23,313 bases of DNA from a virus (lineage: Duplodnaviria > Heunggongvirae > Uroviricota > Caudoviricetes). Numbering within the stretch: the stretch's first letter is position 1; each line of letters opens with the position of its first letter. The notes beneath the pieces were generated by a model, which was given only the letters and a program-made list of their open reading frames with translations, searched no databases and was not told where the DNA came from. The stretch is taken from the IMG/VR virus record IMGVR_UViG_2602041905_000003. One strand, given 5' to 3'. Made by a program: the position numbers and the translations under genes. Positions 1,169 through 13,801 of the stretch are shown one piece after another.

Positions 1169-1525
1169 ATGGACGAATCAAGAAAGAAGTTTGAGGAATA
1201 CGTTGCCAAAAAATTGAGATTACCATTCGAGATGATAACCGAGGCAAGAAATGGTGATAGGTACTTCGCATTTTCAAGCATGGATATTCGTCACTCCTTA
1301 AATGAGTGGTGGACTTTATGGCAGGCATCGCGAGCAGCTATTGAACTGGATATCGACTGGCCAGAATCGAATGACGACTTTTGGAAAGATGGTGAAGAAG
1401 GTGCTTATGCGATGGGTTATGAGGATGGGCGTGACAAAACGGTAATTGCAGTAATGAAAGCTATCAGAGCCGCTGGAATTAAAGAGAAGAATTTCGATGA
1501 AGCAAACAATATTCCTCCGAACTAA
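1169..1525 (+). CDS. Hypothetical nin-region protein (118 aa)
   Basis: ORF with ATG start and upstream GAGGGT; overlaps ninB start by 29 nt, typical of compact phage operons. No family recognised. Confidence 0.55.
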   Translation: MDESRKKFEEYVAKKLRLPFEMITEARNGDRYFAFSSMDIRHSLNEWWTLWQASRAAIELDIDWPESNDDFWKDGEEGAYAMGYEDGRDKTVIAVMKAIRAAGIKEKNFDEANNIPPN

Positions 1526-1907
1526 GCAACAACAGCAAGCCGCAATCAACGCCATCCTCGCAACACCACTCGATAAAGACAAGCCAGTCACCATCCGCAT
1601 TACTGACTACAAGCGCAACCTTGACCAGAACGCAAAATTTCACGCGATGCTGGCGGATATCGCTCGTCAGGTTCAATGGTGCGATAAATGGCTAAAACCA
1701 GAACAATGGAAGGTTTTGTTGATCAGCGGTCATGCAGTGGCAACAAAACAGGAAGCTGATGTTTTGCCCGGGCTTGAAGGCGAATACGTCAACATTCGCG
1801 AAAGTAGCGCGCAGATGAGTGTGAAGCGTATGGCAAGTCTGATTGAGTACACGACAGCATGGGCTATTGGTCAGGGTGTCAGATTTACCGACAGGAGGTA
1901 CGAATGA
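1497..1907 (+). CDS. ninB: NinB (Orf-family recombination mediator)
   Basis: 136-aa translation aligns along its length with my recollection of lambda NinB (DQN motif, MKxx...Q..AI start, similar length). Stop TGA overlaps the next start (ATGA). Confidence 0.9.
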
Positions 1908-2086
1908 GACGACAGCGACGAAGCATCACCGACATCATCTGCGAAAACTGCAAATACCTTCCAACGAAACGCTCCAGAAATAAACGTAAGCCAATCCCAA
2001 AAGAATCTGACGTAAAAACCTTCAATTACACAGCTCACCTGTGGGATATCCGGTGGCTTAGAGAACGTGCGAGGAAAACAAGGTGA
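1904..2086 (+). CDS. ninE: NinE
   Basis: ATG at 1904 preceded by AGGAGG; 60-aa product [32 protein letters not shown]... matches remembered NinE. The track ORF 1859-2086 is an upstream in-frame extension. Confidence 0.8.
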
Positions 2087-2253
2087 TTGACCCAAATCGA
2101 AGTTACGAACAAGAAAGCGTCGAGCGGGCTTTAACGTGCGCTAACTGCGGTCAGAAGCTGCATGTGCTGGAAGTTCACATGTGTGAGCACTGCTGCGCAG
2201 AACTGATGAGCGATCCGAATAGCTCAATGTACGAGGAAGAAGACGATGAGTGA
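2083..2253 (+). CDS. ninF: NinF (small Cys-rich protein)
   Basis: Not in the ORF track (under 60 aa). GTG at 2083 overlaps the ninE stop (GTGA); 56-aa translation [56 protein letters not shown] closely matches remembered lambda NinF. Confidence 0.8.
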
Positions 2254-2515
2254 TTTCTCTGAGCTTATTTCCTTCAAAAAAGACAGAGAAGAAATGCGGA
2301 CTGAATCTGTCTATTACGTTCAACACCGGAATAAACGCTCGGTGCTTGATCAGGAGTTGGTTATTACCGGAGACCTGGCATTCAGAACATATAAGGCCAG
2401 CATGGAAATGAAGGATTTCCCTAAATGTGGTTCTGAAAGAGAAGCCGCGTTAAAGCTGGCTGAGTGGATGCAGAGAATGGCTGCTGCAATTGAGAATTAC
2501 TGGAGCGAACCATAA
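2246..2515 (+). CDS. Hypothetical nin-region protein (89 aa)
   Basis: ATG overlaps ninF 3' end; stop TAA 2513-2515 overlaps the next ATG. No family recognised. Confidence 0.6.
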   Translation: MSDFSELISFKKDREEMRTESVYYVQHRNKRSVLDQELVITGDLAFRTYKASMEMKDFPKCGSEREAALKLAEWMQRMAAAIENYWSEP

Positions 2516-2803
2516 TGGCTAACCTACGCAAAGAAGCACGCGGCAGAGAATGCTAGGTACGTATTTACGGCATATGCAATGGCAATCCTGAAACTACAGT
2601 TCTGGCACATTACCGGATGGCTGGAATTTGCGGAACTGGAANNNNNNNNNNACCTGATCGGCGCATGGGCTTGTAGTGACTGCCACGCGGAGATCGACCG
2701 ACGCACCCGGATTCTCGACAACAAAGACGCCAGACTTTACCACCTCGAAGGCGTGATCAGGACGCAGGCGATACTGCTGAGGGAGGGGAAGATTAAGCCA
2801 TGA
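2515..2803 (+). pseudogene. ybcO: YbcO-like (DUF1364) nin-region protein, interrupted by in-frame TAG at 2554-2556 and by a 10-N assembly gap
   Basis: N-terminal MANLRKEARGREC*VRIYGICNGNPETTVLAH... and, after the N-run, ...CSDCHAEIDRRTRILDNKDARLYHLEGVIRTQAILLREGKIKP resemble the DLP12 YbcO family. The apparent frame change across 2642-2651 is explained by unknown true gap length. TAG sits where a Gln codon (CAG) is expected. Confidence 0.6.
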
Positions 2804-3162
2804 ACGAATATCAGTTTGTGCTTCCATACCCGCCGTCGGTGAATACCTACTGGCGAAGACGGGGAAGCCAATACTACATCAGCGATAAAGGCCAGAAATA
2901 CCGAAAAGACGTTCAGCAAATCATCCGCCAACTTAAGTTAGACATTTTCACCAAATCACGACTCCGCATCAAAGTCATCGTAGACGTTCCGGACTCCCGC
3001 CGTCGCGACCTCGACAACATCCTGAAAGGTTTACTCGACTCCCTTATCCACGCCGGATTTGCGGAAGACGACGAGCAATTCGATGACATTCGCGTAATTC
3101 GTGGCGTGAAAGTACCAGGCGGAAGGCTTGGAATAAAAATCACCGAACTGGAGAACGCATGA
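2800..3162 (+). CDS. rusA: RusA Holliday-junction resolvase
   Basis: 120-aa translation aligns with remembered E. coli RusA (LPYPPSVN...YW, RRRDLDN, GGRL...TE). ATG overlaps the upstream stop (ATGA). Confidence 0.9.
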   Translation: MNEYQFVLPYPPSVNTYWRRRGSQYYISDKGQKYRKDVQQIIRQLKLDIFTKSRLRIKVIVDVPDSRRRDLDNILKGLLDSLIHAGFAEDDEQFDDIRVIRGVKVPGGRLGIKITELENA

Positions 3163-3347
3163 ACGCCACAATTCAAACGATACCAGAGCTTCTTATCCAG
3201 ACACGAGGCAATCAGACCGAAGTGGCAAGGATGCTTTCCTGCGCAAGAGGAACAGTGCTCAAGTACAACCGAGACAGCAAAGGCGAGCGTCACGTAATAG
3301 TTAACGGCGTCCTGATGGTCAAACAGGGCAAAAGGGGAAGGCCATGA
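3159..3347 (+). CDS. ninH: NinH-like small DNA-binding protein
   Basis: 62-aa translation ...GNQTEVARMLSCARGTVLKYNRD...VIVNGVLMV matches remembered lambda NinH (GNQTEVARRL.CSRGTVRKY). Overlapping start/stop with neighbours. Confidence 0.75.
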   Translation: MNATIQTIPELLIQTRGNQTEVARMLSCARGTVLKYNRDSKGERHVIVNGVLMVKQGKRGRP

Positions 3348-3967
3348 GACTCGAAAGCGCAGCTAAATTTCATTCGCCAAAAAGCCCGATGATGAGCGAC
3401 TCACCACGGGCTACGGCTTCTGACTCTCTTTCCGGTACTGATGTGATGGCTGCTATGGGGATGGCGCAATCACAAGCCGGATTCGGAATGGCTGCATTCT
3501 GTGGTAAGCACGAACTCAGCCAGAACGACAAACAAAAGGCTATCAACTATCTGATGCAATTTGCACACAAGGTATCGGGGAAATACCGTGGCGTTGCAAA
3601 GCTTGAAGGAAATACTAAGGCAAAGGTACTGCAAGTGCTCGCAACATTCGCTTATGCGGATTATTGCCGTAGTGCCGCGACGCCGGGCGCAAGATGCAGA
3701 GATTGCCACGGTACAGGCCGTGCGGTTGATATAGCCAAAACAGAGCAGTGGGGGAGAGTTGTTGAGAAAGAGTGCGGAAGATGCAAAGGTGTCGGCTATT
3801 CAAGAATGCCAGCAAGCGCCGCATATCGCGCTGTAACGATGCTAATCCCAAACCTTACTCAACCCACCTGGTCACGCACTGTTAAGCCGCTGTATGACGC
3901 TCTGGTGGTGCAATGCCACAAAGAAGAGTCAATCGCAGACAACATTTTGAATGCGGTCACACGTTAA
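3344..3967 (+). CDS. Q: Late-gene antiterminator Q (lambda Q type)
   Basis: 207-aa translation appears nearly identical to remembered lambda Q, including the zinc-binding Cys pairs (CRDCHG...CGRCKG). ATG overlaps ninH stop. Confidence 0.95.
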   Translation: MRLESAAKFHSPKSPMMSDSPRATASDSLSGTDVMAAMGMAQSQAGFGMAAFCGKHELSQNDKQKAINYLMQFAHKVSGKYRGVAKLEGNTKAKVLQVLATFAYADYCRSAATPGARCRDCHGTGRAVDIAKTEQWGRVVEKECGRCKGVGYSRMPASAAYRAVTMLIPNLTQPTWSRTVKPLYDALVVQCHKEESIADNILNAVTR

Positions 3968-4009
3968 CAGCATGATTGCCACGGATGGCAACATATTAAC
4001 GGCATAATA

Positions 4010-4038
4010 TTGACTTTTTGAATAAAGTTGGGTAAATT
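4010..4038 (+). promoter_or_regulatory. Late promoter pR' with overlapping qut region
   Basis: TTGACT (4010-4015), 17-bp spacer, TAAATT (4033-4038), directly downstream of Q; predicted start about 4045. About 190 nt upstream of the tR'-like terminator, as for the lambda 6S transcript. Confidence 0.7.
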
Positions 4039-4178
4039 TGACCCAACGATGGGTTAATTCGCTCGTTGTGGTAGTGAGATGAAAAGAGGCGGCGCTTACT
4101 ACCGATTCCGCCTAGTTGGTCACTTCGACGTATCGTCTGGAACTCCAACCATCGCAGGCTGAGAGGTCTGCAAAATGC

Positions 4179-4240
4179 AATCCCGAAACAGTTCGCAGGT
4201 AATAGTTAGAGCCTGCACAACGGTTTCGGGATTTTTTATT
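4179..4240 (+). terminator. tR'-like intrinsic terminator (end of 6S-like leader transcript)
   Basis: 11-bp perfect inverted repeat aatcccgaaac (4179-4189) / gtttcgggatt (4223-4233) enclosing a smaller hairpin, followed by a T-run (4232-4240). Confidence 0.7.
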
Positions 4241-4241
4241 T

Positions 4242-4316
4242 GGGTCAGTCGTATAAAGGTCATTACGGAAGGCTGTTAACCTTCTTATCGTGGTTCGAGT
4301 CCACGCTGTCCCGCCA
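4242..4316 (+). tRNA. tRNA-Asn (anticodon GUU), with atypical D-arm and acceptor stem
   Basis: Hand-folded: anticodon stem gaagg/ccttc, loop cTGTTaa (GTT); T-arm cgtgg-TTCGAGT-ccacg; acceptor gggtcag/ctgtccc with one U.U mismatch; discriminator G; CCA encoded. D-stem is only 3-4 bp. Needs tRNAscan-SE. Confidence 0.5.
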
Positions 4317-4321
4317 AATAT

Positions 4322-4397
4322 GCTGGTTTAGCTCCAATGGTAGAGCGGTCGCCTTGTAAGCGAATGGGTAGCGGTTCAAGTCCGTTAACCAGCACCA
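4322..4397 (+). tRNA. tRNA-Thr (anticodon UGU)
   Basis: Hand-folded cloverleaf: acceptor gctggtt/aaccagc, U8-A9, D-arm gctc-caatggta-gagc, anticodon stem gtcgc/gcga(a) with loop cTTGTaa (TGT), T-arm agcgg-TTCAAGT-ccgtt, discriminator A, CCA encoded. Confidence 0.7.
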
Positions 4398-4639
4398 TAA
4401 CTGAGCCGTAGCCACTGGCTATCCTGAACTCATCAGTGATAGTTACGCTGCGGCCTTCTACACATGACCTTCGTGAAAGCGGGTGGCAAGAGGCTGCGCT
4501 AACAACCTCCTGCCGTTTTGCCCGTGCATATCGGTCACGAACAAATCTGATTACTAAACACAGTAGCCTGGATTTGTTCTATCAGTAATAGACCTTATTC
4601 CTAATTAAATAGAGCAAATCCCCTTATTGGGGGTAAGAC

Positions 4640-4963
4640 ATGAAGATGCCAGAAAAACATGACCTGTTAGCCGCCATTCTCGCGGCAAAGGAACAAGGCA
4701 TCGGGGCAATCCTTGCGTTTGCAATGGCGTACCTTCGCGGCAGATATAATGGCGGTGCGTTTACAAAAACAGTAATCGACGCAACGATGTGCGCCATTAT
4801 CGCCTGGTTCATTCGTGACCTTCTCGACTTCGCCGGACTAAGTAGCAATCTCGCTTATATAACGAGCGTGTTCATCGGCTACATCGGTACTGACTCGATT
4901 GGTTCGCTTATCAAACGCTTCGCTGCTAAAAAAGCCGGAGTAGAAGATGGTGGAAATCAATAA
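4640..4963 (+). CDS. S: Holin S (class I, lambda type) with dual-start motif (antiholin from Met1 at 4640, holin from Met3 at 4646)
   Basis: 107-aa translation [34 protein letters not shown]... matches remembered lambda S; three hydrophobic segments; Met-Lys-Met start. Confidence 0.95.
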
Positions 4964-5423
4964 TCAACGTAAGGCGTTCCTCGATATGCTGGCGTGGTCA
5001 GAAGGAACAGATAACGGACGGCAGAAAACCAGAAATCACGGTTATGACGTCATTGTAGGCGGAGAGCTATTCACTGATTACTCCGATCACCCTCGCAAAC
5101 TTGTCACGCTAAACCCCAAACTCAAATCAACAGCAGCCGGACGTTACCAGCTTCTTTCCCGTTGGTGGGATGCCTATCGTAAGCAGCTTGGCCTGAAAGA
5201 CTTCTCTCCCAAAAGCCAGGACGCTGTTGCGCTGCAGCAGATTAAGGAACGTGGCGCTTTGCCGATGATTGATCGCGGTGATATCCGTCAGGCTATCGAC
5301 CGTTGCAGCAACATCTGGGCTTCACTGCCGGGGGCTGGTTATGGTCAGTTCGAGCATAAGGCTGACAGCCTGATTGCAAAATTCAAAGAGGCTGGCGGAA
5401 CGGTCAGAGAGATTGAGGTATGA
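4947..5423 (+). CDS. R: Endolysin R (lytic transglycosylase, lambda type)
   Basis: 158-aa translation [26 protein letters not shown]... matches remembered lambda R; start overlaps 3' end of S. Confidence 0.95.
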
Positions 5424-5887
5424 GCAGAGTCACCGCGATTATCTCTGCTCTGGTTATCTGCATCATCGTCTGCCTGTCATGGGCTGTTAATCATTACCGT
5501 GATAACGCCATCGCCTACAAAGAACAGCGTGATAAAAAAGTCAGTGAGCTGAAGCAGGCGGCCGCCACCATTACTGACATGCAGCGACGCCAGCGTGCTG
5601 CTGATGCACTCGATGCTAAATACACGAAGGAGTTAGCTGATGCGAAAGCTGAAAATGATGCTCTTCGGCGCAAGCTTGATAATGGTGGCAGGGTGCTCGT
5701 CAAAGGAAAATGCCCTGTGCCATCCTCAGCCGAAACCTCCGGCGCCTCCGGCATGGGCAATGATGCCACCGTCGAACTCTCTCCAGTTGCTGGACGAAAC
5801 GTTCTCGGTGTCCGGGACGGAATTATCCGCGACCAAACAGCACTGAGAACGCTTCAGGAATACATCAGGACGCAATGCCTTCGATGA
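5420..5887 (+). CDS. Rz: Spanin inner-membrane subunit Rz (i-spanin)
   Basis: N-terminal TM segment ([18 protein letters not shown]) followed by charged coiled-coil-like region; ATG overlaps R stop (ATGA); N-terminal half resembles lambda Rz. Confidence 0.9.
5640..5846 (+). CDS. Rz1: Spanin outer-membrane lipoprotein Rz1 (o-spanin), embedded in +1 frame within Rz
   Basis: Lipoprotein signal with lipobox (LIMVAGC), Pro-rich mature region ([11 protein letters not shown]), entirely inside Rz in another frame, AAGGAG Shine-Dalgarno 8 nt upstream of ATG. Confidence 0.8.
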
Positions 5888-12354: not shown

Positions 12355-13571
12355 ATGGCTAACCAATTAGCAAAAGACCTTGAAATCATGTTCGAAAACT
12401 ACGTTGAAGGCTTTGAGGCCGCCTGCGTAGTTTCCCGTAACGCTAAAAAATTCCGTCCCGGTGATACAGCAATGCAGCGAGCAGGTGATGTTCTGTATCG
12501 TCCGCAGCATTACCACATGAATATTGAGGAAGGCCTCGACCTCAGCAGCAAAACGCCAACAGCACTGGTTCAGCGCCTTGTTCCTTCAGTGTTCAAGGAG
12601 CCGAAAAACATTCTGTACACTCTGGATGCGCGTGAAATGCGTGATCCGGAACATAAAACTGAAGCTGGTCGCGCCGCAGGTATGCGCCTTGCTGCACAGA
12701 TTGACTCTGACCTGATTTCCATGGTCACGCAGCGTGCTACTAACGTGATCACGATGGCTGACTCAACCGCAGGTACACAGGGCCGTGATTTGTGGAACTG
12801 TGCGGCAGGTATTGATGCCACCATGACGGCGATTGGTGTACCTCAGGGTATCAACCGTCGCTCTTTCTGGAACCCCTTCAACTACAAAGACCTTGCTGGC
12901 GAGCTTGGTCACCGTGCCTATGCTCAGGGCGCAACCCTGACAGCATACGAAAAAGCGCAAATCCCTCCGGTTGCGTCCTTCGATAGCTACAAGACCGATA
13001 TTTCTGGTCGATTACCGAAAGGAAGCACTGAATCCTTGACAGTATCAGGCCAACCTGAACACAAGGTTGAAGCGAAAGATTCAAATGGTATGCCAGTTGA
13101 TAACCGACAGGGGACTATTACGGTATCTGCATCTGGCTTGCAGGTTGGTGATGCGTTCACCATTGCCGGTGTGAATTCCGTACACCAGATCACAAAAGAT
13201 ACCACCGGTCAACCGCAGGTATTCCGTGTTCTGGCTGTTAGCGGAACTACCGTAACAATTTCTCCAAAGATTCTCCCTGTTGAAAATACTGATGTTGCGA
13301 GTCGTCCATATGCAAACGTCGATGCCAAACCGGCAGAATCAGCAGCAATCACCATTCTCAACAAGAACGCAGCACCTGCTAACCTCTTCTGGGCTGATGG
13401 TTCTGTTGAGCTGATGTACGGCAAACTGGCATTCCCGACAGGTCAGGGTCCACAGGTAATGACAGCAACCACCGAGCAGGGNNNNNNNNNNCCACTGCTC
13501 GTTTCACCACTCTGTACGGTTGCTCTGTACTTGTTCCTGAATATACGGGCATCGTTATTGCCGGGCAGTAA
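12355..13571 (+). CDS. Major capsid (coat) protein, P22 gp5-like; contains 10-N assembly gap at 13482-13491
   Basis: Translation resembles P22 coat (e.g. NLFWADGSVEL). After the N-run the correct frame reads ...TARFTTLYGCSVLVPEYTGIVIAGQ and stops at TAA 13569-13571; the track's extension to 13635 is a gap-induced frame artefact. Confidence 0.9.
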
Positions 13572-13578
13572 TTTTGGT

Positions 13579-13598
13579 GGGGCTTCGGCCCCATTTTT
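13579..13598 (+). terminator. Intrinsic terminator/attenuator after coat gene
   Basis: ggggc-UUCG-gcccc hairpin (13579-13592) followed by attttta. Confidence 0.55.
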
Positions 13599-13612
13599 AT
13601 TGGGAGAAGACA

Positions 13613-13801
13613 ATGGCACGAACAATGCTCTATAAGCCTGGCAACATGATCACCTGTGGTCAGTTTGCTGTCGATTACGTCATTGTTGATGACGAAGAAG
13701 TTAAATCTCACCTGAAAAAAGGTTGGGTAAAAACTCCTGAAGAAACCGCAACGAAGCAAAAAGTGGCTAAGGCGGAAGAAGATGGCGAAAACGAAGGGTG
13801 A
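13613..13801 (+). CDS. Small hypothetical virion-module protein (62 aa)
   Basis: ATG 13613 preceded by GGGAGAAG; acidic C-terminus; overlaps start of the gp4-like gene. Confidence 0.5.
   Translation: MARTMLYKPGNMITCGQFAVDYVIVDDEEVKSHLKKGWVKTPEETATKQKVAKAEEDGENEG

Follow-up and report, generated by a model that had tools for sequence, protein, structure and literature searches.

The locus described here raises the question of why a phage whose late control region is close to that of lambda should carry two tandem tRNA genes at the head of its late operon, and what those tRNAs could contribute there. The window, by which we mean the whole analysed stretch of 23,313 nucleotides from a caudoviricete record in IMG/VR (IMGVR_UViG_2602041905_000003), contains the following features from Q to S:

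3344..3967, plus strand: Q, late-gene antiterminator of the lambda type (205/207 aa identical to lambda Q; Pfam Antiterm PF03589, E=1e-57)
4010..4038, plus strand: pR' late promoter (TTGACT, 17 nt spacer, TAAATT; near-identical to lambda pR')
4045..4241, plus strand: 6S-RNA-like late leader (197 nt; about 99% identical to lambda)
4180..4231 and 4232..4241, plus strand: tR' hairpin and its T-tract TTTTTTATTT, forming the end of the late leader
4240..4400, plus strand: exchangeable cassette slot (161 bp here versus 165 bp of unrelated sequence in lambda)
4242..4316, plus strand: tRNA-Asn(GUU) (75 nt; G73, encoded CCA; ARAGORN, Rfam and covariation)
4317..4321, plus strand: spacer AATAT between tRNA-Asn and tRNA-Thr (5 nt; one substitution relative to phage 21 and Sf6)
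4322..4397, plus strand: tRNA-Thr(UGU) (76 nt; G1-C72, C2-G71, A73, CCA; ARAGORN and Rfam)
4401..4639, plus strand: conserved untranslated stretch upstream of S (common to lambda; first 70 bp or so also in phage 21 and Sf6)
4640..4963, plus strand: S holin/antiholin, first protein-coding gene of the late operon (Pfam Phage_holin_3_1, E=2e-30; homologous records say holin)

Run over all 23.3 kb of the window, ARAGORN makes two tRNA calls and no more: a tRNA-Asn(gtt) spans 4242-4316 and a tRNA-Thr(tgt) 4322-4397, each on the plus strand. The Rfam family RF00005 matches the two at 55.3 and 61.2 bits respectively (E=1e-9 and 3e-11 for the whole window), well over its gathering score of 29. The original prediction of a tandem Asn-GUU and Thr-UGU pair at 4242-4397, which had named a tRNA finder as its check, was right in both coordinates and anticodons. 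No other RF00005 match above threshold occurs anywhere in the window, and a permissive Rfam scan of the Q-S intergenic region (3960-4660) returned no further RNA family even at E<=1. Both tRNAs have the expected cloverleaf hallmarks of RF00005, namely a 7-nt anticodon loop with U33 and a GTTCRA T-loop, and both genes encode the 3' CCA. Identity as an Asn tRNA depends on G34 U35 U36 and G73, and identity as a Thr tRNA on G1-C72, C2-G71 and G35 U36; all of these elements can be read from the respective sequences.

The surroundings of the pair are lambda-like, as had been claimed: Q is 99% identical to its lambda counterpart and pR' and tR' are near-identical, and lambda has no tRNA at this position. 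The late leader folds with a long tR' hairpin (MFE -68.5 kcal/mol, z=-4.0), and we place the pR' start site (about 4045) and the AACGAT pause element where they are presumed to lie from established knowledge of lambda. Downstream of the cassette are lambda-type S, R and Rz genes followed by those for Rha, DUF2560, terminase, portal, scaffold and coat. Over the region as a whole, its best relatives are prophages of the P22-like kind (Lederbergvirus), among them phiv205-1, HK446, Kapi1 and mEp506; the window and phiv205-1 are not the same phage, their similarity being a mosaic of 84-99.6% identical blocks that is not collinear overall, and the early-left region is absent from the window. Two runs of exactly 10 N, at 2642-2651 in a nin-region ORF and at 13482-13491 in the coat gene (12355-13635), mark masked or unresolved positions. 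A +1-frame ORF with a lipoprotein-type signal (5640-5846) lies inside the Rz gene (5420-5887), the expected arrangement of an Rz1 o-spanin.

The tRNAs had been described as inserted between tR' and the holin gene. This location is correct, but alignment with lambda indicates a replacement and not a pure insertion: identity of about 98% runs up to the T-tract and resumes from CTGAGCCGTAGCC onward, and the intervening stretch is 161 bp long in the window (4240-4400), where it holds the tRNAs, and 165 bp long and unrelated in lambda (lambda 44782-44946). ARAGORN finds no tRNA in this lambda filler, and aligning the cassette to it gives scattered, chance-like matches, so that a hidden tRNA remnant was rejected. 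Between the same T-tract and CTGAGCCGTAGCC anchors E212 has 201 bp and IME10 298 bp, both tRNA-free; given that the fillers of lambda, E212 and IME10 all differ from the cassette, the slot is polymorphic, with the tRNAs being one of its alleles. In comparisons with phage 21, Sf6, L and JLK-2012 the shared block starts exactly at the terminator T-tract, whether a lambda- or a 21-type hairpin precedes it, and the junction TTTTTTATTT/GGGTCAG is common to all contexts compared. At the other end, the block shared with phage 21 and Sf6 extends about 70 bp beyond tRNA-Thr into sequence also present in lambda. A scan of viral contigs with a pattern fixing loop bases only recovered at least 120 loci; among the matches listed, 113 have full context, and in 78 of these the cassette directly follows a T-tract, the upstream hairpin being 21-type in 57, lambda-type in 13 and of other kinds in 8.

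The cassette itself is already known: GenBank and RefSeq records annotate its genes, and several papers discuss them (PMC3636060, PMC8022706). The SfI genome paper describes tandem Asn(GUU) and Thr(UGU) tRNA genes downstream of Q and places one or both at the same position in Sf6, ST64T, PS3 and phage 21 (PMC3636060), and the phage L paper treats the same tRNA site, leaving undecided whether the tRNAs are excised from the late transcript or transcribed from a promoter of their own (PMC8022706). A 167 bp segment around the tRNAs is 98.2-100% identical among SfI, Sf6, phage 21, HK446, Kapi1, mEp506 and BTP1, most of whose records annotate tRNA-Asn and tRNA-Thr; its identity to the window is 100% in SfI and phiv205-1, 99.4% in HK446, Kapi1, mEp506 and HF4s, and 98.8% in phage 21, Sf6 and BTP1. 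The pair can be placed with the phage 21/Sf6-type cassette by near-identity (98.8% over the 167 bp), Asn-then-Thr order, 5-nt spacer and a location after tR' and before the lysis genes, and it shares these traits with SfI, BTP1, HK446, Kapi1 and mEp506 as well. In HK446, Kapi1, mEp506 and phiv205-1 the lambda-type Q and S flanks are also common to the window (98.6-100%). Phage 21 and Sf6 differ from it by one substitution at position 26 of tRNA-Thr, by a second in the spacer and by an upstream Q/tR' of the 21 type where the window has the lambda type; their records place the tRNAs one base past the annotated tR'. Among 5,426 complete E. coli genomes the cassette is present in 369, nearly always annotated by PGAP, and the arrangement of lambda-type Q, tRNAs and S is found at >=80% coverage in 298 complete E. 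coli genomes; a scan of species-representative genomes gave six loci, too few for host-range statistics. Contigs with this enterobacterial cassette are also binned in MAGs labelled Segatella copri and Collinsella sp., and these are probably misbinned Enterobacteriaceae prophage contigs. As a discovery the cassette is thus without importance.

The first alternative to be weighed is that the tRNAs are decaying, non-functional relics, with the Asn gene in particular a pseudogene. The original prediction had pointed to a weak D-arm and one acceptor mismatch in tRNA-Asn, and both are visible in the Rfam alignment, the mismatch as U4•U69 and the weak arm as a D stem of three pairs, rich in A/U, with U13•U22; furthermore, the second tRNA of phage L and ST64T has been truly rearranged, with a 4-nt deletion and annotation as Leu(TAA). 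The suggestion drawn from these blemishes, that tRNA-Asn may be degenerate, is nevertheless contradicted by covariation in the family. The 113 listed loci yielded 36 distinct Asn variants, of which 35 were counted after one incomplete variant was left out. Across these 35 variants, from the matches listed, the Asn cloverleaf is paired in 92.4% of cells versus 67.9% in shuffles (0/500 as high), slid registers reach <=51%, and 16 of 21 pairs have compensatory changes on both sides. Pair 13-22 is unpaired in 32 of the 35 listed variants, and pair 4-69 in 20, as U•U in the lambdoid subgroup, while the other 15 have a proper pair there (UA, CG, UG, AU or GC); hence U4•U69 and U13•U22 are, on this comparison, conserved family traits and not random damage. 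In tRNA-Asn the GUU anticodon, G73, T-loop and CCA are all intact, its Rfam score of 55 bits stands against a threshold of 29, and its sequence is identical in phage 21, Sf6, L and JLK-2012 even though the flanks of these phages differ. On the Thr side, compensatory changes at 3-70 and 6-67 are seen in Mulock and Flyfo. We accordingly give next to no credence to the relic explanation and reject a degenerate tRNA-Asn: both tRNA genes are real, intact and strongly constrained.

Two further observations concern the variability of the family. The 'tRNA-Leu(TAA)' of phage L (positions 1287-1358 of locus L007; the same in ST64T) is a rearranged derivative of the cassette tRNA-Thr that retains the acceptor, D and T arms of that gene but has lost 4 nt and has a scrambled anticodon arm; with 72 nt, a Thr-type acceptor stem and no long variable arm, it is unlikely to be a normal Leu tRNA. 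Among the listed viral-contig matches, the phage-type Asn tRNA is the constant first member of arrays whose partners vary: Asn-Ile(GAU), Asn-Ile-Tyr, Asn-Gly(UCC), Asn-Phe-Thr-Arg(UCU), Asn-His-Arg and Asn-Met.

Given that the two genes are intact, we asked how they might be expressed. RNA polymerase starting at pR' (about 4045) would normally halt at tR', and Q-modified polymerase, or occasional readthrough, would proceed directly into tRNA-Asn. RNase P cleavage at G4242 and 3' trimming to the encoded CCA would, from general tRNA biology, free both tRNAs and so separate them from the leader and from the S-R-Rz-structural mRNA. That the tRNAs begin right after the tR' T-tract had been foreseen, and G4242, the 5' end of tRNA-Asn, does adjoin the T-tract at 4232-4241, with zero bases between. 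In a consensus scan of 3900-4700 the only sigma-70-like site is pR', and no other promoter-like site was found between Q and S; a promoter belonging to the tRNAs themselves was set aside on this ground, although weak or non-sigma-70 types are outside the power of such a scan and are not thereby excluded. Of the possible routes, transcription that starts at pR' and passes tR' has the best support, because there is no gap between T-tract and tRNA, no other promoter-like site, and a junction conserved in 78 of the 113 listed copies.

The original prediction had also confined expression to late infection through Q-mediated readthrough; the route agrees with the promoter scan, but its restriction to late times is not established. 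In lambda, pR' is not under repressor control. For lysogen cultures of BTP1, whose cassette is 98.8% identical, a study counts five genes above TPM 100, 'excluding the two tRNA genes', and describes the lytic operon as beginning right after the tRNAs, so that the BTP1 tRNAs are apparently highly read in such cultures (PMC7067206). An alternative is therefore that the pair mainly serves the host cell, being expressed constitutively through leakiness of tR' or from an unrecognised promoter, and could protect lysogens from tRNA-targeting toxins or help them translate acquired ACA-rich genes. Besides the unrepressed pR' and the BTP1 text, which implies that the tRNAs are among the genes with TPM>100, pT, a putative promoter dedicated to the tRNAs in the corresponding slot of 933W, would accord with this explanation. 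Weighing against it are the lack of a promoter-like site from pR' to the tRNAs, the direct abutment of T-tract and tRNA, the frequent spontaneous induction of BTP1, unusually high and able to explain the signal (PMC7067206), and the unvarying position of the pair as first in the late operon, which argues for a link to late expression. We regard a primary benefit to the lysogen as improbable. RNA-seq of Kapi1 displays a clear antisense signal opposite the tRNAs, with a similar signal between the tRNAs and the holin gene in BTP1 (PMC12922286); the consensus scan of 3900-4700, which includes the corresponding region at about 4240-4640, yielded no minus-strand promoter.

The exact abutment of the tRNA 5' end to the terminator T-tract, whichever hairpin lies upstream, could also be taken to mean that the cassette acts in cis as an RNA-processing element, with RNase P and RNase E cuts detaching the leader and setting the 5' end and stability of the late mRNA, and with decoding being secondary. 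Punctuation of polycistronic RNAs by tRNA-like elements occurs in other systems. Nevertheless, lambda, E212 and IME10 run the same late operon with tRNA-free fillers, and the conserved anticodons, identity elements and CCA are needless for processing alone. Moreover, the protection that phage tRNA-Thr affords against a tRNA nuclease, discussed below, depends on its UGU anticodon (PMC12445682). A mainly processing role is hence highly improbable, and we return to the reading in which the genes provide working elongator tRNAs.

If so, codon usage might indicate which codons they serve. Codons were counted in the window's own genes and in 59 K-12 genes from two 50 kb regions; the window's own ORFs were used because phiv205-1 is mosaic and not collinear with the whole window. 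The comparison of late genes with the host, which had been proposed as a check, gave a divided answer. ACA occurs at 17.8 per thousand codons in the late genes versus 9.4 in the host genes and accounts for 31% of their Thr codons versus 16% (OR 1.9, p=1e-6), a 1.9-fold enrichment, whereas Asn codons are not significantly enriched relative to the 59 K-12 genes (about 1.2-fold, p=0.06-0.08). According to a 2025 study, E. coli K-12 has a single tRNA with the UGU anticodon, ThrU (PMC12445682); tRNA-Thr(UGU) would decode ACA, which the late genes use about twice as often as a host that has ThrU alone for it. Four Asn tRNA genes are present in the K-12 region covered. Codon supply therefore offers a reasonable, if partial, rationale for the Thr gene, and a weak one for the Asn gene because there is neither a significant Asn codon excess nor a shortage of host genes, of which there are four.

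Pure codon supply, in which the tRNAs only top up over-used codons and any nuclease resistance is incidental, is the classical view, taken by the papers on SfI and phage L (PMC3636060, PMC8022706). It is in keeping with the ACA enrichment above and with the ACA bias of SfI (17.3% vs 7.1%), for which no Asn bias was reported (PMC3636060), and also with the use of AAC for 24 of 25 Asn codons in the phage L coat gene (PMC8022706), AAC being 69% of Asn codons in scaffold and coat here. Against it stand the missing significant excess of Asn codons in a host with four Asn tRNA genes, and the enrichment in the phage of AGG, AGA, AAG, CGA and TCA beyond ACA, each of them without a phage tRNA. A further objection comes from the anticodon arm of tRNA-Thr.

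P2-OLD is the effector of P2-lambda interference. According to the 2025 study, it kills through cleavage of host tRNA-ThrU(UGU), its primary target, which is cut in the anticodon stem at a paired CNG motif (positions 28-30 and 40-42); many tRNA families are cleaved (PMC12445682). Phage tRNA-Thr(UGU) variants rescue such cells, resistance requiring alteration of the CNG motif plus a shortened anticodon stem; the phage 21 tRNA ('tRNA-Thr21'), whose stem is shorter and carries C28U/G42A, is protective in cells and withstands cleavage in vitro, protection requires the UGU anticodon, only UGU tRNAs having been rescuers in the screen, and the rescue, by plasmid-expressed tRNA, was partial (PMC12445682). 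The window tRNA-Thr is identical to that of phage 21 at 75 of 76 positions, the single difference (G26 vs A26) being outside the anticodon arm. Its arm, GUCGC/GCGAA, is identical to that of phage 21, with G27•A43 as a mismatch and both strands free of CNG, and positions 28-30/40-42 read UCG/CGA where host thrU has CUG/CAG within a five-pair arm, ACUGA/UCAGU. Its loop, CUUGUAA, has the UGU anticodon with A37, and thus all sequence features of a P2-OLD-resistant tRNA-Thr (UGU with A37, an altered CNG and loss of the 27-43 pair) are present. The window gene accordingly resembles the published tRNA-Thr21 and tRNA-Thr6 in UGU and A37, and tRNA-Thr21 in its entire arm (27•43 mismatch, C28U/G42A); it differs in having G26 and in its setting in a late-operon leader, the published tRNA having been made from a plasmid promoter (PMC12445682).

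Escape by anticodon-loop mutations was considered and rejected, since neither phage loop, CUGUUAA or CUUGUAA, differs from its host counterpart; such mutations characterize mycobacteriophage tRNAs. Any resistance must therefore lie in the stems. Among the matches listed there are 77 cassette-associated Thr(UGU) tRNAs, of which 74 have exactly this arm, two are one base off and one bears a CNG; the 27•43 mismatch and freedom from CNG are thus found together in 76 of these 77. Not all phage Thr(UGU) tRNAs look resistant, because those of P1 and Cyrano keep the full CNG motif and a 5-bp stem. The retention in 76 of the 77 listed copies of a mismatch-shortened, CNG-free arm, experimentally the determinant of resistance, makes supply insufficient as the sole explanation, and we hold pure supply to be unlikely.

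Together these comparisons suggest that the window tRNA-Thr is likely a cleavage-resistant replacement for ThrU as well as a supplement for ACA. We consider it quite probable that the pair represents two functional elongator tRNA genes, the known Asn(GUU)-Thr(UGU) cassette of lambdoid phages placed first in the late operon, whose tRNA-Thr is a resistant spare for ACA letting late proteins be made. The cassette would most likely sustain late protein synthesis when host tRNA is scarce or destroyed, and tRNA-Asn probably acts similarly, by supply or as a nuclease-resistant spare, which is less certain. A point to be set against counter-defence is that tRNA-Thr, if made only late, may come after OLD has acted. 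On the proposed reading the phage would be a natural example of one carrying a nuclease-resistant tRNA, its tRNA-Thr being practically that of phage 21, which overcame P2-OLD in the 2025 work. Given that the late region differs from that of P2-OLD-sensitive lambda mainly by the 161 bp swap, the two provide a convenient, natural isogenic-like comparison, and this prophage family is suited to asking whether the cassette protects a lambdoid phage natively and what the Asn tRNA does.

An independent example is the tRNA-Thr of JLK-2012 (positions 1087-1162 of locus L008), which has a chimeric makeup, with a 5' half like that of the lambdoid cassette and anticodon and T arms like those of host thrU. 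It bears G42U and U43C, leaving a 3-bp anticodon stem and a destroyed 3' CNG, the same two kinds of change as reported for P2-OLD resistance.

Could the Asn partner be a second spare? Host tRNA-Asn, as read from its sequence, has CGG/CCG at 28-30/40-42 together with A37 and fits the P2-OLD substrate consensus, while the phage tRNA-Asn has AAG/CUU at these positions. The OLD study names host tRNA-Asn(GUU) a single time, among three further tRNAs whose kinetics of cleavage were set beside those of ThrU; of the phage 21 pair it tested only the Thr half, with no discussion of the neighbouring Asn gene (PMC12445682). We tentatively raise the possibility, itself doubtful, that the cassette is a two-part counter-defence unit in which tRNA-Asn too is a nuclease-resistant spare; if true, both spares, at the start of the late transcript, would shield late protein synthesis in cells with P2-like prophages or other Toprim tRNA nucleases. 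Against this, stems arising by chance are more often than not free of CNG, 12 of the 113 listed family members have CNG on both strands, including the Klebsiella-phage type GCAGG/CCUGC, and rescue in the published screen was by UGU tRNAs only (PMC12445682).

The position of the cassette had been equated with the Q-to-S slot in which Stx phages carry tRNAs and toxin genes, and this is right as to architecture and position but not as to tRNA identity or a toxin gene. In 933W the order is Q, pR', qut, terminators, putative tRNA promoter pT, ileZ-argN-argO, a terminator and stx2AB, so that its tRNAs likewise lie after Q/pR'/qut/terminators and before the lysis genes, and they are likewise thought to serve rare-codon decoding. 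In contrast to the window, the 933W tRNAs are Ile, Arg and Arg, unrelated in sequence to Asn/Thr, and lie several hundred bp from the terminators, with their putative own promoter pT and the stx genes next to them. There is no toxin ORF here, S beginning 242 bp after tRNA-Thr, and the cassette is not a Stx-phage moron.

The P1 family also has an Asn-Thr pair, with the same specificities in the same order, a few nt apart and with a tRNA-Thr about 81% identical. It differs in that its Asn tRNA belongs to a different, more host-like lineage, its Thr tRNA retains the CNG motif and 5-bp stem, and the pair lies outside any Q-dependent late leader. In P1 (positions 1425-3078 of locus L011) and JLK-2012 (positions 1007-2001 of locus L008) the Asn-Thr array, with an additional Gly in JLK-2012, is followed by tciA/tciB, an arrangement that suggests a larger tRNA-plus-tci module moving between unrelated temperate phages.
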